Virus record (IMG/VR): IMGVR_UViG_3300042258_000341
Coordinates: 1-64,000 of that record
Origin: a virus
Lineage: Duplodnaviria; Caudoviricetes
Direction: 5' to 3' (one strand)
DNA length: 64,000 nt
Shown: piece after piece, positions 2,846 to 61,098 of the stretch
How positions within the stretch are numbered: position 1 is the first letter of the stretch
Layout of the letters: the number at the start of each line of letters is the position of its first letter
Notes under the pieces: generated by a model
Told to the model about the DNA's origin: nothing
The model's input: only the letters and a program-made list of their open reading frames with translations
Database searches by the model: none
Program-made: the position numbers and the translations under genes

Positions 2846-2945
2846 AGAATATCAGGGACATTGGGATAGATATATGTATGATAAAGATTTAGACCCTTCT
2901 TCCGATGATGATTTTAGACCTACAAATATAAGAAAGAAAAAATGA
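2523..2945 (+). CDS. membrane/coiled-coil protein overlapping the previous ORF
   Basis: TM segment LIFMSLLFGLGIMM plus heptad pattern; stop coupled (ATGA) to 2942. Confidence 0.6.
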   Translation: MVVDIFMRILNKLIDKFMTPEDLIFMSLLFGLGIMMPQLYQKYLNGQKKLETKENEIVCPVTGKLMECQKLPELLQELKLIQNQMSESQIQISEAELKLAKVMNVISKEYQGHWDRYMYDKDLDPSSDDDFRPTNIRKKK

Positions 2946-4348
2946 TAAAGAAATATTCCTCTCTTAAATTTGCAGTTTCTTCCGAAGAACCCGCTGTTTT
3001 TTATCGTGGCGGAGGGCAAGGAAGTATCCCAAGAAATTTAACTTTGTTGGATATTTTGAGATATGAAAAAGATGAGTTGGGTAATGAAGACATTACCGTT
3101 GAACCGGGGATAAATCCGAAAGAAATAACTTCCAACAATTTGATCTGGGTTTGTGAAGATGAAGAGTCTGCAAGCCAATACGGGGAACCGGAATTGATCG
3201 AATTGTATGATTACCAAATAGTTGCAAAAGATTCTGAAGGTGGGTTGTTGATTGAAGATTTAAGCAACCGGAAAACCGGATCTAAAATAGAAGATATGAT
3301 GAATCTGAACAATGAAATAAATTACCCCCCTTACGGGTTTAATACTCTGGATAAGAAATCTTCTTTAACTAAAAAAGATTTTAAACATGATATAGGACAG
3401 AATTTAAAAACAACAAAAAGCATACCCCCTAAAAATATAAAAATATTTGGTGTTTTTGAACCTCAAATTGATTTTTCTTTAGGGGTTGTAACATTTAACA
3501 ATGAAATAGTTTCTGGACATGAAGATAAGAACAAACTATATCATTCTACTTTTAGTGGCAATTTGGGAAGTATTTTACAAGAGGGGATTGTCCCAAATAA
3601 AAAAACCAATTGGGAGAATTGGAGTGAAAAAGGATATTCTTATTTATCTCCAACTCCTTCAGGGGCTTTACAGTGGGCTAAAGATTTATTTGAAGAGCAA
3701 TTAAGAGATTTTGGGGATGTTAAAGAATTTGACGATATTGTTATATTAGAAATAACTTTAGACAACTTCTCTTCAGAAGTGGCTAAAAGACAAGTTCCTT
3801 TCCCGGAAATGACCGAGAAACATTTGGACGATGTAAAATGGTTAGGAACCAAAGTTTCTGTTGTAAAAAAATGTAAGCCGGGAGATAAACAATCCGGGAA
3901 GCCTTGGTGTATTTATAAGCATGATGTAAAGGAACAGCCGAAAGGTTTTCCCAAACATTACCCGACAAAAGAAGAAGCCGAAGAGGGACTCCGGCTTATG
4001 CAAATATATAAACATAAATCTTCCAAAGATTCTTTTTTATACCATGTGACACCCACCAAAAATGTGAAAAGTATTTTAAGGCATGGTTTGCTGCCACATA
4101 AGCCAAAAGATTTTGTGGATGAAAAAGCTGTTTATTTATTCCCTTCTATTTCTTTTGCTGAAGATGCTGTTATGAATTGGTACGGGGGTAGATTTGAAGA
4201 AGATATTCCTTTAACTCTTTTAAAGATATCTAAATTGCAACTGGATTCTTTGGGAATAAGATATTACTCCGGGGACACTCCTTATGAAGTAATTTCTTAT
4301 CAAGCAATTCCCCCGGAAGCAATTCAAATAGGGAAAGAAGATTTTTAA
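2942..4348 (+). CDS. multidomain protein with two ADP-ribosyltransferase-fold (Tpt1/KptA/DarT-like) domains; MIKKYS leader
   Basis: LYHSTFSGNLGSILQEGIVP...SYLS and LYHVTPTKNVKSILRHGLLP...VYLF...IPPEAI. Confidence 0.7.
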   Translation: MIKKYSSLKFAVSSEEPAVFYRGGGQGSIPRNLTLLDILRYEKDELGNEDITVEPGINPKEITSNNLIWVCEDEESASQYGEPELIELYDYQIVAKDSEGGLLIEDLSNRKTGSKIEDMMNLNNEINYPPYGFNTLDKKSSLTKKDFKHDIGQNLKTTKSIPPKNIKIFGVFEPQIDFSLGVVTFNNEIVSGHEDKNKLYHSTFSGNLGSILQEGIVPNKKTNWENWSEKGYSYLSPTPSGALQWAKDLFEEQLRDFGDVKEFDDIVILEITLDNFSSEVAKRQVPFPEMTEKHLDDVKWLGTKVSVVKKCKPGDKQSGKPWCIYKHDVKEQPKGFPKHYPTKEEAEEGLRLMQIYKHKSSKDSFLYHVTPTKNVKSILRHGLLPHKPKDFVDEKAVYLFPSISFAEDAVMNWYGGRFEEDIPLTLLKISKLQLDSLGIRYYSGDTPYEVISYQAIPPEAIQIGKEDF

Positions 4349-12606: not shown

Positions 12607-13109
12607 AAAAACTCGAAATACATACTGCAGGTATTTTAGATTTCTTTAAACAAGAAAAAGGAAAATTAACCCTTACAAAAGAGCAAGCCCAAGAGTTTGA
12701 GGAATTTAAGAAAGAAATTTTCACAATTTACAAAAAGATCAACAATGCATATAAACTGTATTTTCAGGGAGCCAAACTTAAATCACGGAATCCGGAATAT
12801 ATTGTTGAAAAATACCGGGATGAAAAAGGAAATGTGAAAGAAAGAAAAGTAGAAAAAAACACTTCCACTTCTAAGAAGATAGATTTCAAAGGAAAATGGG
12901 GTTTCTTTCTCGAAGATAATAAAACCTCTCTTGGGCAAGCAATCCATTCACTATATGCATTCCTGACAAAACTGGATAATATCGCATATGCTGTTACAAA
13001 TCAACAGCAGCAACCTGAAGAAAAACCTGCTCAACAGCAACCTGAAGAAAAGAAACCGGAACCGGAACAACAAAAGCCTGAAAATAAACCTCCGGAAGAA
13101 AAGAAATGA
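12603..13109 (+). CDS. hypothetical protein with a Q/P/E/K-rich tail, tandem paralog of 12277
   Basis: EIHTAGILDFFK ... KTSLGQAIHSL. Confidence 0.7.
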   Translation: MKKLEIHTAGILDFFKQEKGKLTLTKEQAQEFEEFKKEIFTIYKKINNAYKLYFQGAKLKSRNPEYIVEKYRDEKGNVKERKVEKNTSTSKKIDFKGKWGFFLEDNKTSLGQAIHSLYAFLTKLDNIAYAVTNQQQQPEEKPAQQQPEEKKPEPEQQKPENKPPEEKK

Positions 13110-13780
13110 TTACAAGATACTCTCAATTAAAAATTAGTCGAAAACAATTACCCACCCCAACTTCTGATTTAATGTCGGAGTTGGGTGTTCAGCCTATTGC
13201 AACGCAACGAGACACAAATGTCCATAAAAAATTCTTTGAAGTCTTTGTGGATAATTGGATAATTGAACACAATAAACACCCGGTGATTGTTGAAATAGGG
13301 GCTGGAAAAGGATTGAATGTTCGTAATTTGGAAGAAAAAGGGCTTGATATTATTGCTGTTGAGCCTTTTGTGAATGAAAAATATTGGGGAGAACGAACCC
13401 CTGAATATTCTTTTTCTTCTGAAGTGCCCTCTAAAATTGCAGATATTGTGTATTGTGCTTATGTTTTGAATGTTGTCCCTGAAGATATTGCAAAAGGAAT
13501 TATTCGAGATATCATTAATATTCTGAAGCCTAAAGGGGAGGCTTACATTATCACCCGGGGAAATGATATCTCAGCAATTCCGGTAGTCCACCCTAAATAC
13601 GGAGAATTGAAATGGGGTGAATTGGAATTGATCACAAAATCTCAAGGCAAATTAACCTATCAAAAAGGTTTTACTTTCAACTCTTTAAGAGATTTGATTC
13701 TCTCGGTAGATTCTTCGGTAACGGTTGAAAAAGCGAAAGGCTCTGCTGCAGGTAGTGTAAAAGTAATTCTTAAAAAATAA
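13106..13780 (+). CDS. class I SAM-dependent methyltransferase; MITRYS leader
   Basis: VEIGAGKG, IIAVEPF, DIVYCAYVLNVV. Confidence 0.8.
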   Translation: MITRYSQLKISRKQLPTPTSDLMSELGVQPIATQRDTNVHKKFFEVFVDNWIIEHNKHPVIVEIGAGKGLNVRNLEEKGLDIIAVEPFVNEKYWGERTPEYSFSSEVPSKIADIVYCAYVLNVVPEDIAKGIIRDIINILKPKGEAYIITRGNDISAIPVVHPKYGELKWGELELITKSQGKLTYQKGFTFNSLRDLILSVDSSVTVEKAKGSAAGSVKVILKK

Positions 13781-35134: not shown

Positions 35135-35451
35135 TTGTAAGATATTCCACTCTTAAGAAATTAGCCTCTCTTCGATTGAAAGACATTGCGGATGTAAAAG
35201 TGGATATGGAAGATGCTGACTTTTATGTGATCCGACGAGGGGATAAAAAACAAGTGGGTAAGCCGGTAAAAGATTATAACCCTGAACATATCGGAGTTAA
35301 AGTTACTCGAACAGATTTAATAGCTCCTGATTTCTTGTTTTACTCTTTAATGTTGTTACATTCTCAAGGTGTCTGGGAACAAAAAGCAACTGGGTCACTT
35401 AAACTTGTGAATATACAAACTTCAGATATAAAGAATATTGCTTTAAGGTAA
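35131..35451 (+). CDS. small HsdS-like protein; MIVRYS leader
   Basis: LRLKDIA...APDFLFYSL...ATGS..VNIQTSDIKNIAL resembles HsdS TRD boundary motifs. Confidence 0.55.
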   Translation: MIVRYSTLKKLASLRLKDIADVKVDMEDADFYVIRRGDKKQVGKPVKDYNPEHIGVKVTRTDLIAPDFLFYSLMLLHSQGVWEQKATGSLKLVNIQTSDIKNIALR

Positions 35452-36291: not shown

Positions 36292-36337
36292 AAATAAAAC
36301 GAGCAAAAAGCAATAAGACTTTTTGCTCGTTTTATTT
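36292..36337 (+). terminator. long hairpin terminator
   Basis: 19-bp perfect stem AAATAAAACGAGCAAAAAG / CTTTTTGCTCGTTTTATTT. Confidence 0.8.
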
Positions 36338-36454
36338 ACGTCATATCGTGAAAATAAATAGTTAAAGATGTCATTGTTCTTTATACACTCTTTGATGAAA
36401 CAAGACATTGATAAATCTTGTTTGTCATAAATTTTTTAGATCGGAGTTTATCAC

Positions 36455-37495
36455 ATGAGAAAAGTGCTGTCAAAAGTACAAAAGGTTCGTGCGATTACTG
36501 CTTTTCAGCAGAAGTATGAAGCTTCTCTTGAAAAAGTTGATAAACTTGCCAACAGGATTTATAAAGCTTTTGAAAATCCTAAAGCCAAGTTTACAAAGGA
36601 ACAGATTGCGAAAGTCGCTGCAACTCTGGACTCTGCTGCAAATCATGTAGCGAAGGGCGCAACAACTTGTTTCACAAACCTGAAAGTGGCAATTGCTTCT
36701 GAAATTCCAACTGACCGTGTAGTTGCACATATTGAAGATGCTCACACCCTGCTTTCTAAAATTGCGATTCTTCGCTCTCAAGCTATTGCTTCTATCGCAA
36801 GTGATGAAGACATCAGTATTGATGAATCCGGACAGCTTGTAGATGAACCGATGGAAGAATCTGAAGACATGGAAAATGAAGAAATGATGGATGAAGAAAT
36901 TTCTGATGAAGAAAAGACTCCAGAAGAACTTCAAGAAGATATCCATGAAGATTTAGACATGCTTGTTGAAAAGCTTCAAGAAGAAGTGGGTGAAGAAGTT
37001 GCTGAACCTAAAGAAGCTTCAAGAAAAGCAAAAAAACAGTGTGGGGAAAGTAACCCGGATATGCCAAAAGAAAACCCGGCGAGTAAAGAAGTCTCGGATG
37101 TAAAGAAACTTCAATCCGAATACGAAAAAGAACCCACAATGAAAAATGCAAAAAAAAAATCAGCCGATACTCAAGCTGCGGATGCAGAACTGAATCCTGA
37201 TATGCCAAAAGAAAACCCCGGAATGCAAGAAGAGTCTTTGGAAGAACTCGTAGATGATTATGAAGCTTCTCCCTCAGATCCCGAAAATCTTGAAATGGAA
37301 GACAGCATGATTGATGATGCAGTTAACATGGAAATTCTTACCGACAACGATGTTGATCAATTAGAAGATGAAATGGTAACAAGCTCAACTGCAACTCTTC
37401 GTGAAAGAAAACTCGCTTCTTCTAAAAGAACCGCTTCTAACAATCCGGCTTCTGAAGATGATGTAATGAAAGACATCATTTCTTCTATGTTTTAA
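36455..37495 (+). CDS. capsid scaffold protein
   Basis: Very acidic; NPDMPKENP twice; many x-x-A-S sites; lies between protease and capsid genes. Confidence 0.75.
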   Translation: MRKVLSKVQKVRAITAFQQKYEASLEKVDKLANRIYKAFENPKAKFTKEQIAKVAATLDSAANHVAKGATTCFTNLKVAIASEIPTDRVVAHIEDAHTLLSKIAILRSQAIASIASDEDISIDESGQLVDEPMEESEDMENEEMMDEEISDEEKTPEELQEDIHEDLDMLVEKLQEEVGEEVAEPKEASRKAKKQCGESNPDMPKENPASKEVSDVKKLQSEYEKEPTMKNAKKKSADTQAADAELNPDMPKENPGMQEESLEELVDDYEASPSDPENLEMEDSMIDDAVNMEILTDNDVDQLEDEMVTSSTATLRERKLASSKRTASNNPASEDDVMKDIISSMF

Positions 37496-37521: not shown

Positions 37522-38040
37522 ATGTTACTTATTCACCATAAAGGTATTCATGTTTCTCTTCCATTGGATACTACTAATTTCACAGGCGATGTGGAAGCCG
37601 ATAGTAAACTTCCATACGTTACAGGTCTGGTGGGCGGTGCTCTTGCAGCTATCGACGCTAACGGCGTTGTCCAGTTAGCTGATGGCGATCCCGCAAAAAG
37701 CCTTCTCCCCCTCGGTTTCTTGGTAAATGATGCTGCTGGCTACTTCTTCATGAATAAACCCGCTATCGCTGGTAAAGAAGTTGCGATTACTCATAGCCCC
37801 TGCATGATTTCAACTGATCAAGTTAAAACCGGACAAACTTTCACCCCCGGTCAAAAAGTATATTGTGGAACTGGTGCAGATGCTGGTAAAGTTGTTAACG
37901 CAGCTCCAGCAGCTACTGCCAGACCAATCGGTATCGCTCTCACTGATTTTGTTGCCCAAGGTGACGTTATGAGTGGTTCACTTTCAGTAGCCCCCGGCGT
38001 TCCAATGCTCAAAATCCTTGTCGGCTCTATTGCAGACTAA
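37522..38040 (+). CDS. head decoration / minor capsid protein
   Basis: Gly/Ala-rich beta protein (PLGFLVND, FTPGQKVY, RPIG) immediately before the major capsid gene. Confidence 0.75.
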   Translation: MLLIHHKGIHVSLPLDTTNFTGDVEADSKLPYVTGLVGGALAAIDANGVVQLADGDPAKSLLPLGFLVNDAAGYFFMNKPAIAGKEVAITHSPCMISTDQVKTGQTFTPGQKVYCGTGADAGKVVNAAPAATARPIGIALTDFVAQGDVMSGSLSVAPGVPMLKILVGSIAD

Positions 38041-38071: not shown

Positions 38072-38932
38072 ATGAGAACTGTAACTGCTGCTCAGAAAAA
38101 TCAGTTAATGACCAAGCTTCTCGGCTCAACACAGGGTCGCAAGAAGATTGCCGCTTCAATTCAAGAACCATTGAGAAAATTACGTGACTATGTAAGTATC
38201 GGTCGCCGTGCATTGTGGATTGACGAGCTTCCCGATGGTGCTCTTCCGATTTACGACAGAGACGTTGCAACTCCGGCTTTTGTAGTTGGAGACGAAGGTG
38301 ATTCAATTCAGGCTCTTCCGGTAGAAGGCGCAAGAATGATGGTGCCTCTGTTTGAAATCGCTGCATATCCGAAAATTCCGTTTGCACACGTAAAAGAACG
38401 CAGATTCGATATCATCCGCAGAATCAAGCAAAAAGCGAAAGACGAACTCTTCCGTAAAGAAGACAGTATCATCTTCCAGATGCTTTCTGCTGCTGCTACC
38501 AACAACACTGACAACCCAAGCATCCCAGTTGCTGCTGCTAACTTCAACATGTCAACTATCGTTGATGCTTTCGCAGGTGTTGAAAAATGGGGACTTCGTG
38601 TAGACAAAGTTTTCATGAATCCTCAAGAATTCAAAGTATTTAGAAACGCTGGTCGTGACTACGTTGACTTTGAAACCCAGAGAGAACTCCTCAGAACTGG
38701 TTTCATGGGTCAAGTTTATGGTGCTGGTATCTACATGTCTATGCAGGTTCCTCGTGGCACTATCTTTATCGTTTCTGAACCTGAGTACCTTGGTGTAATG
38801 CCAATTCGTATAGATCTCACGGTTATTCCGGCTGATGTACCGGGAGACCGTATGTTTGGATGGAGTTTATTCTGTAATGAAGGCATGGCTGTGCATAACA
38901 GTTATGGTATTCAGCAGATTATTGTCAGCTAA
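38072..38932 (+). CDS. major capsid protein (HK97 fold, Bxz1/Myrna-like family)
   Basis: IAASIQEPLR..RDY, DELPDGALPIYD, EG...VPLFEIAAYPKI, RKED, VFMNP, G.VYGA; high-expression codon usage. Confidence 0.9.
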   Translation: MRTVTAAQKNQLMTKLLGSTQGRKKIAASIQEPLRKLRDYVSIGRRALWIDELPDGALPIYDRDVATPAFVVGDEGDSIQALPVEGARMMVPLFEIAAYPKIPFAHVKERRFDIIRRIKQKAKDELFRKEDSIIFQMLSAAATNNTDNPSIPVAAANFNMSTIVDAFAGVEKWGLRVDKVFMNPQEFKVFRNAGRDYVDFETQRELLRTGFMGQVYGAGIYMSMQVPRGTIFIVSEPEYLGVMPIRIDLTVIPADVPGDRMFGWSLFCNEGMAVHNSYGIQQIIVS

Positions 38933-49008: not shown

Positions 49009-49770
49009 ATGGATCATCCAAGAAATACTGCGGAATGGATTTACAAAGATTTACTTCTCTTCAAAGAAGAGATTTTAAAAAATCTCGAAGATAAAGCGAG
49101 TGGGTCTTCTGCCGCTGTGCAAAGGCTGTATAAAATTGTTCAGGAAATAGAAAAGAAATACCAATTAAATCCTATTCAACGAGGAAGTATTGAAGACTTT
49201 ATTTATGACGGGGAAATCTTTTTAAAGCCGGAAAATAAAGAAAAAGCAATAAATCAATTAACTTTGGGGATTATGGATGATTTTTACGGAGAAATGTATT
49301 GGATAAAACAACTTATACAGTCCCCGGCAAATCATCAAAAAGAAACATGGTTGAAAAAAATAAGAGTTTGTTTTGAATTTGCGGCGGAAGATTTGGAAGA
49401 ACATTTTGAAGACCTAATTGCTTTCCCAGAATACAAAGAAGAAAGTACGGAAAGGTTAATCCAACAAGTTTTCGATTTTTATTATTATCTTGAAAACGAA
49501 GAATACTCCCGAAATATAAAAAACAACCAAGCAAGTTACAAAATTAAAGATTTGTTCACGTTAATAATGTTATATCAAGGAATGCCTCGGGAAGAAATTT
49601 ACATGTATTTTCACGGTAAACGGATTTGGTATTTAATTTCAGAAATTCAAGATTTCTACAACGACATTACTTCCGGAAATGTTGAAAAGATGTATGAATT
49701 ACAAACTAAATACGTAGGGTCTTTACGAAAAATTAAAAGCTACAGTGCTTTGAAGAGGCAAAACCCATGA
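49009..49770 (+). CDS. helical hypothetical protein with a C-terminal IKSYSALK motif
   Basis: 253-aa ORF. Confidence 0.7.
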   Translation: MDHPRNTAEWIYKDLLLFKEEILKNLEDKASGSSAAVQRLYKIVQEIEKKYQLNPIQRGSIEDFIYDGEIFLKPENKEKAINQLTLGIMDDFYGEMYWIKQLIQSPANHQKETWLKKIRVCFEFAAEDLEEHFEDLIAFPEYKEESTERLIQQVFDFYYYLENEEYSRNIKNNQASYKIKDLFTLIMLYQGMPREEIYMYFHGKRIWYLISEIQDFYNDITSGNVEKMYELQTKYVGSLRKIKSYSALKRQNP

Positions 49771-51335
49771 TTACAAAATACTCCCGTCTTCGAAAAATAG
49801 CTGTGGAAAAGATACATGACTTTCGGATAAAAATGGAAAGAGAAGTAATCGACTTTCTTAATTGGGGTCGATTCAGAGGGTTATTTAGGGGATCGCTTAA
49901 ACAATTAAGCTGGGGCGGGACGGGTAAGCCCGAGCTTCCTGATCATGAAGCAATAATTCAATTTTTACAAATATTAATAGCTTGTGCTCAACCGCACAGT
50001 GAAATTAGAGACCGTGAATTAGAGGCGTTGCCTTTTAATTACCGAGAGTATATTTCAGATTACGCTCTTAATAGGGTATTGACTCCTGAAAATATTGCCC
50101 AAGAATTTAAAAGAAACCCGATTTTTAATAAATTCTTGGGCAATCTATTAAAAATCGCCGGAGTTTATGAAGACACTATTGATGAAACAATAAACGCACA
50201 CCCCATTCAGTATTGGCTTCAACATATCGTTGGTGAATTACAAGAAAATTATGAACATGACGATTGGAAATATAAAGAAAGACCTTTTGAGGATGAAGTC
50301 GAAGAAAATAGAGAATTAATTCTGGAAGATAAGTTTTACCCTATGAACGGGGAGTCTGAAATTCTTTATGAAGATACGAAATGGCTAGTGGTTCAACCAA
50401 AAACATACCCGGCATATCTTTTTTATATTACCGGGACATATATCACACCTCATACTGAAGGGGTTTTTGAAAGATATTGGGAGTCTTTTTTTATTTTCTT
50501 ATTAAAAGATGAAAAAGTGCCGATGTATCTTTGGGATTCCTCATCTACGGAATATGAAGAAGAGCTTATCGATCAAGATGAAAACCCGGAAAGACCTGTA
50601 GATTTCTTTAAAAGCAATCCTGAGCTTTCTGATTTTTTCAAAAATAAATTCTTTTCTCAAAATACCTTAGAAAAGATACTGCAGGGTAAACCTGCAGTAT
50701 CAGCAGCCAGCCCTTCTCTACAAGAGATTGTAGAAGACAGTCGAGATTATCGAATAGATCGTGTAGAATCTTGGTTGTCTGATGGATTTATGTATGATTT
50801 TGATTCCGGATATTCTTGGAAGGATATTTTAAATGAATTATCTCTTTCCGAAGAAAATAAACAATTGATCGTTAATTATTTACAAGAAAAATATGCCGAT
50901 TACTTTCAAGAAACCGGATTAACTCTTGAGGATTTTGAAACAATTGCTGATGCGATTGAAGAATTAGATGAAGATTATGAAATCACAACCAAGATAAGTA
51001 GCGCATATGATGATGCGGTTATTGGGAATATCATATCTACAACGCAAAGATATTTAAATAATTATCTTTCTCAACACTTTGGTTTGGATTTCTCTAAATG
51101 GTATGTCGGAGAGGATCTTTTAATTCCTGCAGAATATATTGTAAAAAACTGGTCGGCTTTTATGGGCGAAAGTCCGATATCCCTTCAAAAAAACATTGCT
51201 GATATTTTAATTAAAATTGCAGGAAAATTAGATAGTTCTGATTTCAATCGTGCTGTCGAGTTGGGGTATAATTCGGGATATGCAGAAGAAGATACTTTTA
51301 ATGACTACTTATATGAAAGGCTGCGGGAGTTATGA
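49767..51335 (+). CDS. acidic protein; MITKYS leader; C-terminal half paralogous to 51332
   Basis: AYDDA...LSQHFGLDFSKWY...FNDYLYERLREL. Confidence 0.8.
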   Translation: MITKYSRLRKIAVEKIHDFRIKMEREVIDFLNWGRFRGLFRGSLKQLSWGGTGKPELPDHEAIIQFLQILIACAQPHSEIRDRELEALPFNYREYISDYALNRVLTPENIAQEFKRNPIFNKFLGNLLKIAGVYEDTIDETINAHPIQYWLQHIVGELQENYEHDDWKYKERPFEDEVEENRELILEDKFYPMNGESEILYEDTKWLVVQPKTYPAYLFYITGTYITPHTEGVFERYWESFFIFLLKDEKVPMYLWDSSSTEYEEELIDQDENPERPVDFFKSNPELSDFFKNKFFSQNTLEKILQGKPAVSAASPSLQEIVEDSRDYRIDRVESWLSDGFMYDFDSGYSWKDILNELSLSEENKQLIVNYLQEKYADYFQETGLTLEDFETIADAIEELDEDYEITTKISSAYDDAVIGNIISTTQRYLNNYLSQHFGLDFSKWYVGEDLLIPAEYIVKNWSAFMGESPISLQKNIADILIKIAGKLDSSDFNRAVELGYNSGYAEEDTFNDYLYERLREL

Positions 51336-52765
51336 TTACAAAATTTTCCGTTTTAATAAAAGACGCTTTTTTGCGAACTGCCGGAATAGAAGACGCTTAT
51401 TCCAAATATTACTCTGATATCCCCCGGGAAGTTTTTAATCAATTGGTTTCTGCAGACCCAACCGCAACACAAGATGCTACCGGAAATCCTAAGAAAATAG
51501 GAACTTACGGACAGTGGATTCTTCGAATGTTTCAACAAAAGAAATTGAAACTCGAAGATTTGTATAAAGTAACAAGAGATTTAAAAACCCTTGTACAATT
51601 ACTACCCTTCCTTAAAAGAGAAGGAATTTCTTTCAATATCAATCAGATGAAAGATACTCATGATTTCTTTGAATTCATCCGGGAAGAATCTTATTTAATT
51701 GCTCCGGACATAGAAGAAGTGGAAGACGAACAATTTCCAGAAATTCTTTTTACCGAACAATATTTCTTGAATACCGGGCAAGCCGAAAAAGTATACGAAG
51801 ATGAGAAAGAAGTGATATTTGTCCCTTTAACCTTGGAAGCTTCTAAATTCTACGGACACGGCTCAGATTGGTGTACTTTATTCCCGGATATGTTTAAAAG
51901 ATATTCGTCTGAAGATAAGCTTTGGATACTTGTACATAAAAACGGGGATTACTCGGATCGTTGGCAATTTCATTTCCCGTCACAACAATTTATGGATTAT
52001 TACGACAGCCCTATTCCACAGGAAGATTTGGAATACTTCTTTCGAAAGAATCCCGGAATAAATGACTTTTTCAAAAAACAATATGTGTCTGAAGAAAAAC
52101 TAAGTAAATTATTCGGAAATGAAGATTTCTTTATGCTGCAGATAGATACTTTGAATGATCTTGTTCAAGAGGGAAGAGCTGCGGATGTGGATCGAGCGGA
52201 GGGTTATCTTTCTGGAGAAGTCTTTTTAGACTATGATTCAGGAATGACAGTAAGAGATATTGTAAAATATCTTGAAATCTCTCAAGAAAATTTCTTAAAA
52301 ATCCGAGAATATCTTGAGCAAAACTTTTCGGAAGAACTGGAAGAGCAAGAAATAGATTTAACAACTCCTGAAGATGTTTATAATGCGATTGATTCCTTAG
52401 ATGCTGATGACATTAAAAATGCTATTGTTTGGGCATATGATGATGCGGCAAGAGACGCTTTTCTTGCTAAATTCCAAGAAGAAATAAATGAGAGTCTTTC
52501 TTCGCATTTCGGAATGGATTTCACAAATTGGTATCCGGGCGGGGAAATTAAAATAACAAAAGAACAAATAGAAAAAGAATGGTTCCGATTTGCCGGGTTG
52601 TCTTTGGATGAAATAAAGAAAAGACCATATTTATTGTTTAATTCTTCTGAAGATTCAAGATTGGATAATTATGAATTGTCTAAGGCATGGGACTACGCTG
52701 AACGCTCTTATGTTAAGGATGAATATTTTAATGATCAATTAACTTACCGATTATCTGAGCTGTAA
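51332..52765 (+). CDS. acidic GxxSxWC-domain protein; MITKFS leader
   Basis: ADPT, YGHGSDWCT, WQFHFPSQQFMD; AYDDA...LSSHFGMDFTNWY...RLSEL. Confidence 0.8.
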   Translation: MITKFSVLIKDAFLRTAGIEDAYSKYYSDIPREVFNQLVSADPTATQDATGNPKKIGTYGQWILRMFQQKKLKLEDLYKVTRDLKTLVQLLPFLKREGISFNINQMKDTHDFFEFIREESYLIAPDIEEVEDEQFPEILFTEQYFLNTGQAEKVYEDEKEVIFVPLTLEASKFYGHGSDWCTLFPDMFKRYSSEDKLWILVHKNGDYSDRWQFHFPSQQFMDYYDSPIPQEDLEYFFRKNPGINDFFKKQYVSEEKLSKLFGNEDFFMLQIDTLNDLVQEGRAADVDRAEGYLSGEVFLDYDSGMTVRDIVKYLEISQENFLKIREYLEQNFSEELEEQEIDLTTPEDVYNAIDSLDADDIKNAIVWAYDDAARDAFLAKFQEEINESLSSHFGMDFTNWYPGGEIKITKEQIEKEWFRFAGLSLDEIKKRPYLLFNSSEDSRLDNYELSKAWDYAERSYVKDEYFNDQLTYRLSEL

Positions 52766-52833: not shown

Positions 52834-53352
52834 ATGGCATCTACTCCTGAACAAGCAATGCAAAATATCCTTGAAGGAATTGAACATCGTTGGCATTTTT
52901 CTCTTGCAGACAATATTCTGGATTATATACCGGATATAGATGATATTTCTGCAGCAGTTTATGATGCCGCAGACGATATAAATGGGTTTCCCCCAAACAC
53001 TCAGATGTCTTTTGTCGATATTTATGACCATACTGATACCAGATGGAGATCTTTGCTTTATTTAGGAGCTGCGAAAAATGTAATTCAAATGCTCGTAAAT
53101 ATGTGGACTCAGAATGGTTTTGATCAGACTATCGGAGAATTAAGACTTGAAAACAAACTTAATGATTACCGAAGTCTTTATGACTCTCTTGTAGGGGAAT
53201 TCGAAAAGAAAGCCGAAAGAGTAAAGAAAACTTCTCAGAAATATGTTCGTGGAATTTCTTCACAAAGCTCAGGTTACGGAGTTCTTTCAAATTACCTTTA
53301 CGGAACCAGCCCTTTCTTTTCCGTATTTAATTCAAGGATAAGATTGAGATGA
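52834..53352 (+). CDS. probable head-tail adaptor (neck) protein
   Basis: DDINGFPP, LLYLGAA, short helical protein in the virion region. Confidence 0.55.
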   Translation: MASTPEQAMQNILEGIEHRWHFSLADNILDYIPDIDDISAAVYDAADDINGFPPNTQMSFVDIYDHTDTRWRSLLYLGAAKNVIQMLVNMWTQNGFDQTIGELRLENKLNDYRSLYDSLVGEFEKKAERVKKTSQKYVRGISSQSSGYGVLSNYLYGTSPFFSVFNSRIRLR

Positions 53353-54176
53353 AATATTTAAGTTTACTTACAAAACAAGCAAATCTTTTCACAACAGAGT
53401 CTTTCTACGAATTTCTGGAAAGACACAATTTAAATTGGTTTCCAATTCCAGATGTTAAGCCTTACTCTTATTACGATGAGGATATTGAAGACAGTCTGGA
53501 ACAAATTTACAATCTGATCCCGAAAACTTTCAAAAATCAATTCCCTAAAGTAAAAGAAATAAAAGCTATTTATCGACCTTGGGTGAAAGAAGTTCTGGAA
53601 GACGGGGAAGCTGATGCTGCAGAAATGAAACAGGTGGAAGCTTTTATTCAACAAAAAGTAGTAGAAATGTTCGATGCAATAAAAAAAGATCGTGAAGATT
53701 GGAAAAAAACCCCGACTCTTCCCGGATTGGATACAAGAGGGAGAAAACCCGGCTCTCCGAATAAACCTAAAGAACCTCTTAAATATTCCACACAAGAAAT
53801 AAATGCTTTTGTAAAAGAATTGTCCGGGAATAAACATTCGGAAATTGAAAGAATCTTACAAGAAATTTTCCCGGTATCGGACGCGGAATCTGAATTATTC
53901 TGGGACGGGGAGCCTCTGGACGAAGAAAGAGCTAAACTTGTTGTTCTTTCTTGGATTTATCAGGCAGACATTGAATACGCTGCAAAACAAGGGGCTTCTG
54001 AGGAAGTAAAATCTTTATTACAAGCTATGAACAAAGATAGTATAAAACCTTCGGAAGAGCTTTTAAAAAAATTCGAACAAAGAGATAATAAAAATTACAC
54101 TCTGAATCCTTATTTGGATAAAATAAAAGGAAATTCTGAACATAAAGTTCATCCGGAAATTCCTACCGATTACTAA
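53349..54176 (+). CDS. acidic protein with an AT-hook-like motif; MKYLSL leader variant
   Basis: TRGRKPGSPNKPK. Confidence 0.7.
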   Translation: MKYLSLLTKQANLFTTESFYEFLERHNLNWFPIPDVKPYSYYDEDIEDSLEQIYNLIPKTFKNQFPKVKEIKAIYRPWVKEVLEDGEADAAEMKQVEAFIQQKVVEMFDAIKKDREDWKKTPTLPGLDTRGRKPGSPNKPKEPLKYSTQEINAFVKELSGNKHSEIERILQEIFPVSDAESELFWDGEPLDEERAKLVVLSWIYQADIEYAAKQGASEEVKSLLQAMNKDSIKPSEELLKKFEQRDNKNYTLNPYLDKIKGNSEHKVHPEIPTDY

Positions 54177-55330: not shown

Positions 55331-55842
55331 TGCAATTTCTTATCCGAGACATGCAGACCCTTGAAGGTAAATTTCGTGAGAAATATGCTCACAGGGTTTT
55401 TCGAGCTTTGTTTCGGCGTTTCGGAATGGATGTGAAAGTCCTTCGTAAAAACACAATTTCTTCTGCTTCCGTATTCAATCCTGTAACAGAAGCAGAAGAT
55501 TTATCGAAAGCCGCTTTAAATGTTTTCGGGGATTTTTCAGGAATTTCCCCAGCGAAAGGCAATCCTATTCTTGACGAAGACCCAACAGATGATGTTGAAT
55601 TTCAGGCAAGAATTGTAATTGCGACTTTCCCTTTAGACCCTTTCGATGCCGCAAGTACTGGATTTTTAACTCAACAGGTCATTTTCTCGGCTGACGATTT
55701 ACAGCCTCAAGACCATATTTATATTTATTCGGAAGATGGGACAGTAAAACAAGGATTAATCGGAGATAGGTTTAAATATGGAAATACCGATGAAGTTTAT
55801 AAATCATGGACATACAACAATTTAGGCGGTGAAACTACGTGA
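55330..55842 (+). CDS. possible head-closure (neck) protein
   Basis: FGMDVKVLR start, beta-rich, virion-region context. Confidence 0.45.
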   Translation: MQFLIRDMQTLEGKFREKYAHRVFRALFRRFGMDVKVLRKNTISSASVFNPVTEAEDLSKAALNVFGDFSGISPAKGNPILDEDPTDDVEFQARIVIATFPLDPFDAASTGFLTQQVIFSADDLQPQDHIYIYSEDGTVKQGLIGDRFKYGNTDEVYKSWTYNNLGGETT

Positions 55843-57260
55843 TTAAAAAATACTCCCTACTTCAAAGATATGCTGGAGCAACCCAGCAACAAATAGATTC
55901 CGTGGCGACAAAACTTAATTTAACTCCCGAACAAGTTGTTTCTTTAGCGAATGCAGTTGATCCTACTCCTGAAAAGAAATTCGAAGCTTGGATTTTGAAG
56001 CAAATGGGTTTCAAGAATATAATCCTTCCTGAAGATGGAAATCGTGTTCAACAAGTCCTACAAGATTTTATTACCTTATCGAACAAGAAACAATTACAAA
56101 AAAGGGATATTCAACAATATCGAAGAATCCACGATCTTGAAGCAGAAATTGACAAGATAAAAGGTCTGGAAGCAACCCCTGAAACCTCGGAAAAACTTAA
56201 TGAATATTTACAACTCCCGGGGGTTGAAATCTTTTTGCAAATTCCCGGGTGGTTAGTTCTTTCTGTAAAAAATCCACATTCTGCAGCAGAATTGGCTTCC
56301 GGAACCAAATGGTGTACTTCCGACCCTGAAACTGCGGATTATTACATTGCAGGGTATTTTTTACTTGTTTTCTTCGAAAAAACCGGGACAAGTCTTAAAA
56401 AAATGTATCAAGCCACTCTGTCTTTTGATCAGTTTATGGATGTTACGGATGATCCTGTAACCGAAATTGAAAGTGATTTGGCTCAGGCAATTGTAGATAA
56501 ATATTTTACAATATTGGAAAAAGACCCAGACGATGATACGTTGTATTCTTCAATTTATGAAACAATCCGACAATTTTTGTTTATGGAAGCACCCTTAAAT
56601 GAGGAGACAATACAATTTGCAGTTGATTCTACTCCAAATGGCGATGAAGTATGGGAAAATATTTATAGAACGGGGATACATGACTTTCGTGAAAAATTAA
56701 TTGAATCCGAAGCAACTCCACAAGAATTTATGTATCTTTTTAATTCCTATACTGAAATAGAATGGGAAATTCCCCGTTGGAAAGAATTCGAAAAGGCGGT
56801 AGAACGAGAACAATTTGATTTTGATTTACAAAGCGAAGACACTGTTTATACAATTCTTTCTTATTTAGCGGGGGTTGAAAAATTCGGAAGATGGGAAACA
56901 GTGGATAATTATCTCTTAGATGCTAAATTTGTAGCCAACCCGGATCATTTCGGTATCTGGTTTCATAAAATGATAAAGTATCTTAAGTTTAATGATGCCC
57001 CGGACATTGAAAGATGGGCAGAATTTGAGACTTTTATACAGAAATTGATGCAAAAAGCGGAAAAATTAACTCCCCCGGATATCTTTGCATGGCGAATTTC
57101 TTTATTGGCTGCAACTTACTGGCGATATTTCGCTCCTAAGTATACAAGATGGAATGACGAAGTTGAGGATTTTATTCTGAAATTCGGAGATAGTTACGGA
57201 CACAATTTTTACTATCAAGACAATCCTTGGCAAATTTACAAATATCATGCATGGAAATGA
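55839..57260 (+). CDS. GTKWC-domain protein with an aromatic helical C-terminus; MIKKYS leader
   Basis: N-terminal ~190 aa homologous to 33494 and 59027 (VDPT, KQMGFKNIILPED, LPGV, SGTKWCT). Confidence 0.82.
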   Translation: MIKKYSLLQRYAGATQQQIDSVATKLNLTPEQVVSLANAVDPTPEKKFEAWILKQMGFKNIILPEDGNRVQQVLQDFITLSNKKQLQKRDIQQYRRIHDLEAEIDKIKGLEATPETSEKLNEYLQLPGVEIFLQIPGWLVLSVKNPHSAAELASGTKWCTSDPETADYYIAGYFLLVFFEKTGTSLKKMYQATLSFDQFMDVTDDPVTEIESDLAQAIVDKYFTILEKDPDDDTLYSSIYETIRQFLFMEAPLNEETIQFAVDSTPNGDEVWENIYRTGIHDFREKLIESEATPQEFMYLFNSYTEIEWEIPRWKEFEKAVEREQFDFDLQSEDTVYTILSYLAGVEKFGRWETVDNYLLDAKFVANPDHFGIWFHKMIKYLKFNDAPDIERWAEFETFIQKLMQKAEKLTPPDIFAWRISLLAATYWRYFAPKYTRWNDEVEDFILKFGDSYGHNFYYQDNPWQIYKYHAWK

Positions 57261-57263: not shown

Positions 57264-59030
57264 ATGATTCGAAAATATTCAAAAATTAAATTTGCAGAAA
57301 CTTCAGATGCGGAATTTGAAAGCTCTGTAGATATTATTTTTAAAGAATTAAAAGAAGGCAAATATTCTTGGCTTCCGACAATTTTTCATGATAAGTTAGC
57401 ACAAACTCAAGACCAGCAAAAAGAAGCTATAGACGCATATATTGAAATTTCAAATCAGCCACAATACCAAGTATTATTTGGGAAATTACCTTCAGGGTTG
57501 TTCCCTATTTTAAAGTTTTCTTTTCAGGGCAAATATAAATTAACTTCGGAACAAATCGAGAATATATTAACCCCTATTGCAAAAACGGTTCAATTCCTCA
57601 ACTTAAAAAGTTATGTGTTGTTACATAATATTTCGGAAATTTCAGATTGGGATCGGACAATGTATTTGCAATACGCATTACATGATTTTACACATCTGGC
57701 TCCACATTTAACCCCGCAAAACAAAGAAGACTTTATAGAACTTCTTTCGCAGTATTTCCTTCTTAAAAAAGAGCCGCAAGAGAATTTAATTCGAAAAATA
57801 AAAGAAACAAACCTCATAAGACTTGCGGCAGTTCAAACTTTATTCGAAGTTTACAATTTACTCACCCCTACAGAACTGTTTGTAAAAGAAGTCTTTAAAT
57901 TCCTTGAAAACGGGAGATTTATAAAAGCTGCTGAAGTGTTGTCGGAAAATAATCAAATCTTCGATCAAGAAGCCCTTAAGAAAATTGTTAAATGGGTAAC
58001 AAATTCCCGGGTAATAAATGAATTTTTTATCGACCCTGAAGAAATCGCAGGAGTTATTGATGCTCTTTTAGATAAGCACGGACTGACAAAAGAAATGCTT
58101 ATGGATTTTGAAGTATTTCAATATTTACGAGATAAAGTAATGCTGCCCTCTTTTGTAAAAAGAGGCTGGGTGAAACACGAAACCGTTATGCCCCCTGCAA
58201 CTCAAAAAGCATATTCACAACTTAGAAGTTTCTTGAAAGAAAAAGGAACTTTTGTGAATATAAATGAATTGAGAAAACAACCTTTTTTCAATAATTCTGA
58301 TGTGAAACAATTTCTTTTAAAAGAGCATCCTAAAGGGCTTTCTTTCGAAGATATATTGCATAAGGATATGGAAGTAAATGGCTCTCCTTTTGTAATTTCT
58401 GAAGGAAGCTATCCTTCGTATCAACAAAGTCTGTATTTTGTAAAAGATTTGCCAAGAAAAACTTTTATTCTTCTTTTCGAAGACATGGCTAAATTACTTG
58501 GATTTAAAGATGATCCCGGATTTAAAGAATATCAAGAAAAATATCTTTCTAAGTTGCAATACGGGGAACATAATATAGGAACTCCCGGAAATACTTTCGG
58601 GTGGGCTTTGTATAAAAAGATAGGGGAAAATACTTATTTTATTGAACAAATACAAACAGATTTAAATCGTCTGGCTCAACAATTGAAAAGTAACAGAACC
58701 GAAGAAATCCTTGGAGATTACAAACATTACCTTGAAAATAAATACGGGAAAGAGAAAATTGCACAATACGAAAGAAGTATTTTAAAAACCGTAAAAAATT
58801 ATTTCGAAGTAATCCTTTCTGCTTTCTTGCAAGAATTTCGAGGGGCTAAGATTTATATTTCTTCCCCGGAAATAATAAAAGAAACCGCAGGAGAAAAAGC
58901 CCCGGTGTTTGAATATCAACAAATCCCTCCGAAGTTTAATTTCCAAGAATTGAAAAAATTTGAGAAATATTCCGATAATCCGGTATGGTATAAATACAAT
59001 GCGAAATTAAACAAGTTGAGCTTGAAATGA
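57264..59030 (+). CDS. large hypothetical protein; MIRKYS leader
   Basis: C-terminal H...GNTFGW...YFIEQIQTD motif; ends KLNKLSLK. Confidence 0.75.
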   Translation: MIRKYSKIKFAETSDAEFESSVDIIFKELKEGKYSWLPTIFHDKLAQTQDQQKEAIDAYIEISNQPQYQVLFGKLPSGLFPILKFSFQGKYKLTSEQIENILTPIAKTVQFLNLKSYVLLHNISEISDWDRTMYLQYALHDFTHLAPHLTPQNKEDFIELLSQYFLLKKEPQENLIRKIKETNLIRLAAVQTLFEVYNLLTPTELFVKEVFKFLENGRFIKAAEVLSENNQIFDQEALKKIVKWVTNSRVINEFFIDPEEIAGVIDALLDKHGLTKEMLMDFEVFQYLRDKVMLPSFVKRGWVKHETVMPPATQKAYSQLRSFLKEKGTFVNINELRKQPFFNNSDVKQFLLKEHPKGLSFEDILHKDMEVNGSPFVISEGSYPSYQQSLYFVKDLPRKTFILLFEDMAKLLGFKDDPGFKEYQEKYLSKLQYGEHNIGTPGNTFGWALYKKIGENTYFIEQIQTDLNRLAQQLKSNRTEEILGDYKHYLENKYGKEKIAQYERSILKTVKNYFEVILSAFLQEFRGAKIYISSPEIIKETAGEKAPVFEYQQIPPKFNFQELKKFEKYSDNPVWYKYNAKLNKLSLK

Positions 59031-60382
59031 TTAAGAAATATTCACAACTCCATATCTCGAAAGCAACAAAAGAACAGATAAACTCTGTTTCCAAGAAACT
59101 CGGATTAACTCCCGAACAGATCGTTTCTTTTGCCCATGAAGTTGATCCAACAAGTAAATACGAAATTTGGCTTCTTAAACAAATGGGATTTAGAAACATA
59201 ATTCTTCCCGAAGATGCGGAACGGGTTCAAAGAACTCTTAAACAATTTGAACAGCTTAACAACCGCAAACAACTTAAATTTCAAAACATAAATCAATACA
59301 AAAACATTGTTGATCTTGAGAATGAAATAGAAACCCTTCTTCCGAAAGAATTATCGGATGCATATAGTTACGATGTTCAAGAATTCTTGAAGCTTCCGGG
59401 AGTTTCTGTACTTGGACAAAACAACGAATGGTTTATTCTTGAGGTAAGTGATCCTGAGTCTCTCACCGTTCTTGGAGATTCAACCGAATGGTGTACAAGA
59501 CATATTAAGTGGGCTAACAAGTATATTGTTGAAGATAATACAAAACAATATGTTGTTTTTCAGAAACAAAACGGGAAGTTGAATAAATACGCACAATTTG
59601 CTGAAGATTTCAGTCAGTTCAAGAACGTAAAAGACCATGAAATAAAAGATATTCCAGACAGTTTGTTTCAATTAATCGACAGTAAGTTTATTGTGGTTCC
59701 TTTTAGTTTTGTAAAAAGAAATCCGGATGCTATTTATCGTTGGATTGAGAAACAAGGGGCTGAAATCAAAGGGGATTTAGACCTTCGAGGAACAAAAATA
59801 ACAAAGCTTCTTGAAGGCTTAACAACTATCGGTGGTTATTTAGACCTTCGAGGAACAAAAATAACAAAGCTTCCAGAGGGATTAACAACTGTTGGCGGTA
59901 ATTTAAACCTTAGAGGGACAGCAATAACAAAGCTTCCTGAAGGCTTAACAACTGTTGGCGGTAATTTAAACCTTAGAGGGACAGCAATAACAAAGCTTCC
60001 TGAAGGCTTAACAACTGTAGGTGGTAATTTAAACCTTTACGGAACAAAAATAACCAAACTTCCTGAAGGCTTAACAACTGTAGGTGGTAATTTAAACCTT
60101 TACGGAACAAAAATAACCAAACTTCCAGAGAGCTTAACAACTGTCGGTGGTGATTTAGACCTTGAAGAAACAGCAATAACCAAACTTCCAGAGAGCTTAA
60201 CAACTGTCGGTGGTTATTTAGACCTTGAAGGGACAGCAATAACAAAGCTTCCCGAAGGATTAACTGTTAAACGGGGTATATCTGGAACCAACCCGGCAAC
60301 CGGGAAAAGATATCAAGAAGAATACGATGAAATGAAAAGAAGAAAAACTACGAGTTTCTTGAGAAAGTTGGATGTAGAATGA
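59027..60382 (+). CDS. GxxTxWC-domain plus LRR protein, paralog of 33494; MIKKYS leader
   Basis: First ~230 aa closely similar to 33494; eight 21-aa LRRs. Confidence 0.88.
   Translation: MIKKYSQLHISKATKEQINSVSKKLGLTPEQIVSFAHEVDPTSKYEIWLLKQMGFRNIILPEDAERVQRTLKQFEQLNNRKQLKFQNINQYKNIVDLENEIETLLPKELSDAYSYDVQEFLKLPGVSVLGQNNEWFILEVSDPESLTVLGDSTEWCTRHIKWANKYIVEDNTKQYVVFQKQNGKLNKYAQFAEDFSQFKNVKDHEIKDIPDSLFQLIDSKFIVVPFSFVKRNPDAIYRWIEKQGAEIKGDLDLRGTKITKLLEGLTTIGGYLDLRGTKITKLPEGLTTVGGNLNLRGTAITKLPEGLTTVGGNLNLRGTAITKLPEGLTTVGGNLNLYGTKITKLPEGLTTVGGNLNLYGTKITKLPESLTTVGGDLDLEETAITKLPESLTTVGGYLDLEGTAITKLPEGLTVKRGISGTNPATGKRYQEEYDEMKRRKTTSFLRKLDVE
59768..60271 (+). repeat. 8 x 63-bp tandem repeat encoding 21-aa LRRs
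   Basis: GG(N/Y/D)L(N/D)L(R/Y/E)GT(A/K)ITKLPE(G/S)LTTV. Confidence 0.95.
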
Positions 60383-61098
60383 TAAAGAAATATTCAGAAT
60401 TAAATCTCGAATCTTTTTTAAAAAAAAATGTAACTAGAAATAATTCTTTTTATTCTCTTATGCTAGATTTAATTGACGCTGGGCCGTTAGATGGGGGCTG
60501 TGCATTACTAGCTATTTCTTTAAAAAAGATATTCGGTGGTCAACTTTACGGAATTAAAGCTACAAGGTCAAGAAACACCCCTTCGAAAATTCAACATGTG
60601 GTTTTGAAATATAATAATAAATATTATGATGCTGATGGAGGCTTTTCTGAAAAAGAAATGTTGACAAAATTTGAAGATGAGGAAATTGGTATTTTATTCC
60701 CGGTTTTAACCCCAATATCGCTTTCCGAAATTCCCCCGGAAACACCCACTTCCCCGGAATATGTGGAAAAGATTGTTAATTTTTTTAAAAAGAGAACTAA
60801 GATATCTTCTTTGAAAAAACAATCCGGGAAAATAAAAGAAAAGTTGACGCAGATGTGGGAACAACAAGTTGACCCGGACAGAGTTTCTTTTGAAGAATGG
60901 CTTGACTCTGTTGACCCGGAAAAATACCTTGCCGGGTATACTGATGTCCCGGTAAAAACATGGGATAAAAAATATCATGAAGTTTCTCAACCTTATGATC
61001 TGGATTTTAACCAAAGCTTTACCCCGGAAACAACAGGACAAGATAACGGGCAAACCGTTTCTCCTCTTACAATTGTAAAAGAACAAGTTTTTCCGTAA
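60379..61098 (+). CDS. papain/transglutaminase-like Cys-His-Asp protein; MIKKYS leader
   Basis: DGGCALLA, IQHVVL, YYDADG. Confidence 0.65.
   Translation: MIKKYSELNLESFLKKNVTRNNSFYSLMLDLIDAGPLDGGCALLAISLKKIFGGQLYGIKATRSRNTPSKIQHVVLKYNNKYYDADGGFSEKEMLTKFEDEEIGILFPVLTPISLSEIPPETPTSPEYVEKIVNFFKKRTKISSLKKQSGKIKEKLTQMWEQQVDPDRVSFEEWLDSVDPEKYLAGYTDVPVKTWDKKYHEVSQPYDLDFNQSFTPETTGQDNGQTVSPLTIVKEQVFP

Follow-up and report, generated by a model that had tools for sequence, protein, structure and literature searches.

Phage T4 marks proteins for its head with a capsid-targeting sequence (CTS), MKTYQEFIAE. This 10-residue N-terminal peptide is sufficient for packaging, is removed by gp21 and is carried by internal proteins that differ among T4 relatives (PMC9026906, PMC3012670); gp21 cuts C-terminal to Glu (PMC9026906). 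Here we analyse a 64,000 bp stretch of DNA from an uncultured phage (the window), which is positions 1 to 64,000 of a 196,978 bp record (IMGVR_UViG_3300042258_000341; G+C 36%), and a short peptide, the tag, that is encoded by 28 of the approximately 250 genes of this genome (about one in nine). Window coordinates are those of the record, and positions above 64,000 refer to the same record outside the window. The tag is a real and strongly non-random feature at the peptide level. By analogy with T4, we give a probability of about 55% to the reading that it is a capsid-targeting tag, which would recruit proteins into the prohead core, where they would be enclosed and from which they would be delivered with the DNA. 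Literature text searches with the peptide strings and with the concept gave no description of this tag.

An earlier reading of the window from its letters alone (the sequence-only reading) had taken T4 internal proteins as the precedent for such a leader, and the precedent is as that reading gave it (PMC9026906). The tag resembles the CTS in being a peptide of about ten residues at the N-terminus of unrelated proteins, and the CTS too is kept in T4-type phages while the bodies behind it turn over. Among the T4 cargo, which acts against host defence, is an ADP-ribosyltransferase (ART), Alt, whose C-terminal propeptide parallels two C-terminal tags found here. The tag differs in having no similarity to the CTS quoted above, in being basic and not acidic, and in having neither a conserved Glu nor the [LI]-x-Glu rule. 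No match to gp21 is detectable in the probable head protease, the capsid protein is small and of the phage G type, and there are 24-28 tagged proteins per genome in contrast with a handful in T4; moreover, the system described here is known from sequence alone. The mismatch in sequence and in cleavage rule makes the tag an analogue of the T4 system and not a member of it.

In phage P1, the N-terminal 30 residues of DarB suffice to send a heterologous reporter to the capsid (PMC9024508). The likeness lies in an N-terminal signal that takes an anti-defence enzyme into the capsid; the P1 signal, however, is found on one giant protein and needs a stepwise Dar chain, whereas here a short consensus is present on dozens of separate proteins. 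For the phiKZ-like giant phages, we know of no description of a shared N-terminal consensus tag. Phages of this kind, such as SPN3US, have many head-internal proteins, including paralog families, which the prohead protease processes and which are then ejected into the host cell (PMC7411985, PMC10052503). Their cleavage motif, capsid type and protease family are different from those considered here. The domains of polyvalent proteins are predicted to travel in the virion and to enter the host with the DNA (Iyer et al., 2017; PMC5512222). The repertoire behind the tag is the same (ART-PolyVal, MPTase-PolyVal-like, SprT-like and ParB_N) and the genes are likewise found among head genes, but polyvalent proteins fuse 2-15 domains in one polypeptide that is often anchored by MuF or the portal, whereas here separate genes have their own tags. 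Encapsulin cargo peptides are short, terminal and modular, occur on diverse enzymes and bind the inner face of an HK97-fold shell. Encapsulins (PMC11202242) differ in having no DNA, portal or protease and in using other peptide motifs, and capsid binding by the tag is putative.

The consensus of the tag is M-I-[KLTR]-K-Y-S-x-L-[K]-[K]-(x)-A, a peptide of about 10-12 residues that is nearly always N-terminal and twice C-terminal. By class, the 28 tags comprise 23 of the form MIxKYSxL, two of the form M[TS]ILK[YF]S and three of class B, M[KN]YL[SG]xL, including that at 53349. Megablast of 11 kb of the window against a phage collection found no relative at the DNA level. At the protein level there are at least three relatives with tags of the same type: G005 (IMGVR_UViG_3300029288_000067, 224 kb), which was reached by an exact-pattern scan of IMG/VR, and L076 (an NCBI metagenome assembly) and L077 (a Logan assembly), 21 kb each, which were reached through homologs. 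The genes of the window that carry the tag, or a variant of it, are as follows (lengths in amino acids, aa; pI, isoelectric point).

2942..4348, + strand: tag MIKKYSSLKFA; 468 aa; C-terminal part PARP / RNA 2'-phosphotransferase-like (PF00644, E 1.8e-4), a weak match below the family cut-off
13106..13780, + strand: tag MITRYSQLKIS; 224 aa; S-adenosylmethionine (SAM)-dependent methyltransferase (PF13489, E 6e-10); outside the head module
29606..30031, + strand: tag MIKHFSQMRRFA; 141 aa, very acidic, pI 4.4; the G005 ortholog starts MAIVKYFTEMKTA
32781..33497, + strand: tag MIKKYSSLKKES; 238 aa; ART-PolyVal (PF18760, E 1.3e-11), domain from residue 33
33494..35134, + strand: tag MIKKYSQLHISK followed by ATKEQ; 546 aa; member of a nine-copy mosaic AGAT/ATKEQ family
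35131..35451, + strand: tag MIVRYSTLKKLA; 106 aa, orphan; the final tagged gene ahead of the protease gene
49009..49770, + strand: C-terminally tagged; 253 aa, ending in RKIKSYSALKRQNP before the stop codon; motif at 49732-49755, 15.5 bits
49767..51335, + strand: tag MITKYSRLRKIA; 522 aa; C-terminal part akin to the 51332 gene
51332..52765, + strand: tag MITKFSVLIKDA; 477 aa; the G005 ortholog starts MKHFSVLKVE
53349..54176, + strand: class B tag MKYLSLLTKQA; 275 aa
54239..55330, + strand: weak variant MPRNILAFSVLSK; 363 aa; the G005 ortholog starts MRMIMAYSFL; membership uncertain
55839..57260, + strand: tag VIKKYSLLQRY followed by AGATQQQ, GTG start; 473 aa; AGAT family
57264..59030, + strand: tag MIRKYSKIKFAE; 588 aa, orphan
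59027..60382, + strand: tag MIKKYSQLHISK followed by ATKEQ; 451 aa; AGAT family
60379..61098, + strand: tag MIKKYSELNLES; 239 aa, orphan

A whole-genome six-frame scan with the pattern I[KTVR][KRH][YF]S.[LMI] gave 22 matches, 20 of which are immediately after ATG or GTG. These codons make up approximately 2.1% of all codons, so about 0.5 start-adjacent matches would be expected (binomial estimate, P ~1e-31). In a position-weight-matrix scan, all matches of at least 16.7 bits were at start codons with the single exception of a copy in 183712-184824, which lies 11 residues from the C-terminus of a 370-aa protein. Across 79 non-identical tags from all sources, Ile is found at position 2 in 94%, Lys or Arg at position 4 in 97% and Leu at position 8 in 94%; Tyr/Phe5 and Ser6 were fixed in this set by the search pattern. 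The sequence-only reading had listed 12 starts with the leader, and M/V-I-x-[KRH]-[YF]-S-x-[LMI] is present at every one of them; the C-terminal copy that it reported in 49009-49770 is also real. Of the weaker variants it named, 53349 has a class B tag and 54239 is plausible in view of its G005 ortholog, but 47985 is just a weak variant. The scan of the whole genome and its relatives showed the leader to be more widespread than that reading had claimed, with 28 genes here and further genes in G005, L076 and L077. In addition, a 33-codon open reading frame (ORF) with a perfect tag, MIKRYSELNTQL, is found at 75295-75396 directly after the tagged gene 74738-75298, and is probably a truncated remnant of a tagged gene.

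When the tagged proteins minus their first 14 residues were clustered by BLASTP, the bodies fell into 19 clusters: one nine-member family of mosaic paralogs and 18 singletons. The leader is thus modular, as the sequence-only reading had proposed, with 28 genes and 19 body clusters sharing a peptide of 10-12 residues. Its description of the bodies as mostly unrelated fits the 19 clusters, but nine of the proteins are one mosaic family. Bodies of this family begin AGAT(Q/K)(Q/E)QI or the variant ATKEQI, and in this genome class A and class B leaders, 10-13 residues in length, end exactly at the AGAT/ATKEQ junction. The leader classes are interchangeable among the paralogs; MKYLSFLHKI precedes AGAT in one and MIKKYSLLQRY in another. 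All 15 close AGAT homologs (this genome's paralogs included) are tagged at the same junction, and more distant homologs have other N-termini.

No tagged protein matches more than one kind of domain, some match none at all, and MuF domains were not found. Among the labels that the sequence-only reading had given to the bodies, those of an ART (ART-PolyVal, 32781), a methyltransferase (13106) and an acidic protein (29606) agree with our matches and 2942 has a weak PARP-like one, but the HsdS-like, Cys-His-Asp and leucine-rich-repeat labels had no Pfam or PHROG match at E <= 0.01. The same reading had stated that the leader is absent from metabolic and replication genes. This is borne out for every recognisable gene of replication or nucleotide metabolism; no clearly annotated gene of this kind is tagged, with NrdD, the clamp loader, the helicase and the DNA methyltransferase genes 19316 and 46675 among those examined. 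Outside the window, the following tagged proteins have a recognisable domain or an invariant motif; in two of them, Acb1 and the SprT-like protein, the domain opens immediately behind the tag.

171348-173159: tagged protein with a weak MPTase-PolyVal match (E 3e-3)
175323-175802: tagged Acb1 (E 3.7e-13); domain from residue 13, profile position 2
178746-179927: tagged SprT-like protein (E 1.7e-7); domain from residue 18, profile position 2
181725-182339, - strand: tagged 204-aa family with the invariant motif GGVL-x2-VVEH-x-GD-x2-HRM

Members of the 181725 family as little as 49% identical still share the tag; behind it come six variable residues, with an indel, and conservation resumes in the body at residue 17. 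The AlphaFold model is all-helical with a mean predicted local distance difference test score (pLDDT) of 88.5 and a predicted template modelling score of 0.85. Residues 1-12 have pLDDT values below 50 in this model, which shows the tag to be a free, unstructured extension. Foldseek found no PDB match for the family at E <= 0.001, and it may be a new metal-binding fold.

The positions of the tagged genes are best seen in relation to the head genes, which are listed here.

35497..36264, + strand: probable head-maturation protease, 255 aa; homolog of phage G gp19
36455..37495, + strand: scaffold-like acidic protein, 346 aa, pI 4.4, with acidic repeats and the tag-like start MRKVLSKVQKVRA
37522..38040, + strand: possible decoration protein, 172 aa, named from its position only, between the scaffold-like and capsid genes
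38072..38932, + strand: major capsid protein, 286 aa, HK97 fold without the delta domain
187018-189216, - strand: portal (phrog_16240, E 8e-14)

The tagged genes are found in clusters at 32781-35451, just upstream of the protease gene, at 49-61 kb, between the head and tail-sheath-like genes, and at 171-186 kb, just downstream of the portal gene. Of 251 proteins, 120 are common to G005 and this genome, with a median identity of 43%, and G005 has 24 tagged starts. In L076 the tagged genes within 21 kb number 12 or 13; 11 are consecutive and abut the protease gene and a 12th is upstream, and this set includes Acb1 and ART-PolyVal, and a tagged ART-PolyVal is also present in L077. In L077, 10 genes are tagged within 21 kb, and the order is portal, nine tagged genes with two untagged genes among them, protease, a small gene, the scaffold-like gene, a possible decoration gene (171 aa) and the major capsid gene. 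Taken together, these sequences indicate that the tag is preserved while genomes rearrange and bodies turn over, and that it is concentrated in the stretch from portal to protease. One G005 ORF (132777-133907, - strand; 376 aa) has a tag at its start and a second perfect copy, A-IKKYSQLKVA, at residue 134, where GCA replaces the start codon. It looks like two tagged genes fused, and there is a similar case at 108126-109022.

The same gene order bears on a rival reading, in which the tag would dock its bearers elsewhere on the virion (at the portal, neck or tail lumen) or onto an assembly other than the capsid. They would then be associated with the virion, or co-localised, and would not enter the capsid interior through the scaffold core. 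We consider this improbable. The clusters begin directly downstream of the portal gene, and those of the window at 49-61 kb are interleaved with conserved untagged genes between the capsid and tail-sheath-like genes, as such a role would predict, but a 12-mer portal has few sites for 24-28 protein species and the bodies are enzymes (Acb1, ART, methyltransferase and peptidase-like) and not fibres or adhesins. Additionally, the acidic scaffold-like protein, which we infer from its position and composition to be an internal core component, shares the tag.

By its capsid protein, this virus is nearest to phage G among cultured phages. The major capsid protein matches PDB 6wkk, the gp27 major capsid protein of phage G, with an E value of 5e-64. 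It is 90% identical to its G005 counterpart, 39-41% identical to those of phage G, Tunturiibacter phage Tunturi_5 and an uncultured 485 kb phage, and only 26% identical to Bxz1-type mycobacteriophage capsids. The Bxz1-like relationship assumed by the sequence-only reading does not stand, therefore, and the Bxz1-type phage Catera has no such tag. The probable protease is 30% identical (E 4e-16) to gp19 of the Bacillus/Lysinibacillus phage G, which is listed as a head maturation protease (PMC12484599). His87 and Ser146 are invariant in an alignment of 10 homologs; the AlphaFold model made from these 10 sequences has a mean pLDDT of 37, and phmmer and a profile search against the PDB, together with Pfam and PHROG, gave no match for this protein. 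The possible decoration gene is kept in G005, L076 and L077 and occupies the same place as gp26 in phage G, but its sequence did not match that of gp26.

Phage G and seven uncultured relatives (L051-L058) have a second dialect of the tag, M-K-(S)-R-L-[IKR]-K-x-A, with examples such as MKRLIKKA, MKSRLKKIA and MSKKISRLKKTA. In the neighbourhood of the protease, portal and capsid genes it begins two to five genes in every 20 kb. At 25 protease loci, 31 N-termini match this dialect in comparison with the approximately 1.4 expected from the internal frequency of the core. In the whole genome of phage G about 30 ORFs start with it, among them those that begin at 17765, 28218, 73330, 207449 and 244460 of the phage G record. 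Behind the tag, these proteins have ParB_N, Nuc_deoxyri_tr2 and a weak PARP-like match, among other bodies. Common to both dialects is S-x-L-K-K-x-A. The head-gene surroundings of Tunturi_5, of Catera and of 17 loci that encode distant relatives of the protease (L059-L075) showed no shared N-terminal tag. A match to Acb1 in phage G was weak, below the cut-off and uninformative. We also dropped a guess that tagged phage G proteins with '[FY]HGT[SD]' are ARTs, as it had no Pfam support.

A tag-like start is also found on the putative scaffold. In all four genomes with MIKKYS-type tags (this genome, G005, L076 and L077), the scaffold-like protein encoded after the protease starts M[RK]KVLS[KT]VQKVR[AS], which fits the tag pattern M-x-K-x-hydrophobic-S-x-hydrophobic-x-K-x-x-A. 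In the phage-G-type phages, the protein encoded after the protease begins with the local tag (MKSRLKKIA and MSKKISRLKKTA are examples), continues with a helical domain and ends in a long acidic tail. The simplest reading of the same kind of N-terminal peptide on both the scaffold-like protein and the putative cargo, in both clades, is that the two compete for a common partner or co-assemble on it. A further gene of 75-95 aa with a tag-like start (MRKLKIAN or MRKLSIVNKTA) is found between the protease and scaffold-like genes of L076 (18866-19093) and L077 (15428-15715); the corresponding 190 nt gap in the window, 36265-36454, has no counterpart of it.

The end of the tag suggests where it might be trimmed. 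Ala is present at positions 10-14 in 58% of tags in comparison with 20% of untagged N-termini, and [KRHQ]-x(1,2)-A starting at positions 9-11 is present in 44% of tags and 7% of other N-termini, although the AGAT paralogs inflate both counts. When approximately 190 proteins of at least 100 aa were ranked for composition-corrected enrichment of [KRH]-x-A, the highest was 29606 (5 observed, 1.1 expected; z 4.0) and the second highest was the scaffold-like protein (12 observed, 5.0 expected; z 3.6). In G005 several such sites are kept, and H-N-A comes before one of the two C-terminal tags. Since scaffolds are typical substrates of head proteases, this pattern fits a cleavage rule. Cleavage by the head protease at a basic-x-Ala junction is possible on this sequence pattern, at somewhat short of even odds; the pattern is suggestive, not compelling.

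Trimming alone, with no targeting, could also be the function of the leader. Phages of Firmicutes such as 80-alpha borrow an L27-type leader of about 10-14 residues, which ends hydrophobic-Ala and is cut by Prp; in 80-alpha it is found on the capsid and scaffold proteins. The tags resemble this leader in length and shape (length and hydrophobic-Ala end only) and often end basic-x-Ala, and phage G encodes ClpP and ClpX (PMC12484599), which would suit a pro-sequence processed by a phage or host protease, or a degradation tag that times activity. We give this low odds. There is no Prp homolog (PF04327) in this genome (a host enzyme would be possible), the phage G dialect MKRLIKKA is unlike the L27 leader, and the two C-terminal copies misfit an N-terminal pro-sequence. 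Additionally, processing gives no reason for the concentration of tags between portal and protease in four genomes.

The codons of the tag separate selection on the peptide from selection on the DNA. Ile is encoded by ATA (9), ATT (8) and ATC (6), Ser by TCC (8), TCT (7), TCA (7) and TCG (1), and Leu by CTT, TTA, TTG and CTC, and these counts confirm the synonymous variation noted by the sequence-only reading. The 25 nt upstream of the tagged starts have nothing in common beyond a purine-rich ribosome-binding region. The synonymous variation together with the C-terminal copies indicates that the peptide is selected, not the DNA or the translation start, and the extreme C-terminal position of the two copies rules out a translation-start effect. 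It is therefore very unlikely that the tag is an inert by-product of history or genetics, whether a recombination handle, a duplication remnant or the result of first-codon selection for coupled translation. Such an origin would draw on the A-rich first codons, on the nine of the 28 tagged genes that are true paralogs, and on the overlap with the upstream stop codon as ATGA in 10 of the 12 first-listed tagged genes; these overlaps favour Ile2 but leave the rest of the motif unexplained, and Tyr-Ser-x-Leu has no known translation role. Moreover, the tag is kept at a median proteome identity of 43% while the adjoining linker varies. Least likely of all is that a modifying enzyme (maturase) recognises the tag, one enzyme serving many precursors as for ribosomally synthesized and post-translationally modified peptides, since, although the invariant Ser (or Tyr-Ser) could be a modification site, the cargo consists of large folded enzymes and not small precursors, the Pfam listings of L076 and L077 show no modifying enzyme beside the tagged cassettes, and a radical-SAM maturase was rejected because the sole radical-SAM gene (23248-23847) is the NrdG-type partner beside NrdD and is syntenic in G005. 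The C-terminal copies, the synonymous variation and the context of head-gene clusters argue against the processing, by-product and maturase explanations alike.

Under the capsid-targeting reading, the tag would recruit its bearers into the assembling prohead, where they would bind the same putative partner as the tag-like N-terminus of the scaffold-like core protein. The head protease may then trim the tag at the basic-x-Ala junction. The cargo would be enclosed with the DNA and subsequently delivered into the next host, and it would consist of separately tagged enzymes: the Acb1 phosphodiesterase directed against the cyclic-oligonucleotide-based antiphage signalling system (CBASS), ADP-ribosyltransferases, SprT/zincin-like peptidases, a methyltransferase and many orphans.

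Several observations weigh against this reading. No sequence relationship of the protease to T4 gp21 or to a protease of solved structure could be detected, and the proposed cleavage motif is degenerate and missing from approximately 40% of tags. The first codons, ATG ATA AAA AAA, are A-rich and may partly reflect selection on translation initiation, the ATGA overlaps again favouring Ile2. With 28 cargo species, the longest of 603 aa, a single capsid would have much to hold. The sequence-only reading had placed the leader genes among head and neck genes, and they are concentrated in the head-morphogenesis region, but those at 2942, 13106, 74738 and 82553 are among non-structural genes outside the head modules and those of phage G are scattered over the whole 497 kb; gene position alone thus does not define the set. 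The text of the phage G multi-omics study, which covers particle proteomics, neither discusses the tagged proteins nor uses the term 'N-terminal' (PMC12484599). Finally, analogous leaders of other sequence are found in other huge phages (MNWYKxIKxA, MKRYI and MNRYDIALGKKPPP), for which a packaging role has low odds.

A wider proposal can be made from the sequence comparisons, which we put forward tentatively and would sooner doubt than accept. According to this, the tag would be a clade-wide address code of jumbo phages and megaphages related to phage G, in at least two dialects, copied from the N-terminus of the scaffold-like protein. It would load about a tenth of the encoded proteins (fewer in phage G) as an unfused polyvalent arsenal, so that pre-made Acb1, ADP-ribosyltransferases, peptidases and nucleases could act in the next host before phage gene expression, and its release would be by a basic-x-Ala cut of a new type of head protease.

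If the capsid-targeting reading is true, sequence alone would mark approximately 25-30 candidate injected proteins per genome in these poorly known huge phages. Most of these are orphans and could be new counter-defence factors, and if Acb1 is packaged the phage would bring anti-CBASS activity into the cell together with its genome. Giving separate gene products one shared address would offer evolution another route than the fusion of effector domains into giant polyvalent proteins, and a capsid-loading tag of 10-12 residues would be usable for engineering, as the T4 targeting sequence has been. Phage G can be cultivated and has the second dialect on about 30 proteins, and the idea is therefore directly testable.

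Some neighbouring genes deserve mention. An untagged 233-aa DUF5661 protein (E 2.6e-15) is encoded at 32083-32784, directly upstream of the tagged cluster before the protease gene, and is kept in G005. Three paralogs of 588-638 aa (39116-40882, 64726-66618 and 69098-71014) match HNH/homing-endonuclease PHROGs in their C-terminal half (E ~6e-62). One of them directly follows the capsid gene and has a syntenic ortholog in G005 (43% identity), which is unusual for a selfish homing gene. A DEAD/ResIII helicase is present as two overlapping ORFs, 42300-43070 and 43067-44281, and as one 575-aa protein in G005; the split may be genuine, or it may come from a frameshift or an error of sequencing. The gene at 44345-46612 encodes 755 aa with an N-terminal VWA domain and matches phrog_2426, of unknown function (E 5e-127), and its G005 counterpart has an ORF for the C-terminal 425 aa only.

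At the end of the record, 193168-196101, there are rIIA-like (phrog_612, E 5e-80) and rIIB-like genes. The gene order in L076 is rIIA-like, rIIB, homologs of the genes at 1250 and 1686, and then tagged genes, and this synteny suggests that the two ends of the record are adjacent in the phage genome. Near the other end, the endolysin-like gene at 398-919 resembles phage G gp22/23. Two G005 proteins, P0002 and P0030, are found in NCBI under 'Candidatus Pacearchaeota archaeon' (a metagenome-assembled genome). As G005 is a 224 kb phage contig with portal, capsid and tail genes, the archaeal bin assignment looks wrong.

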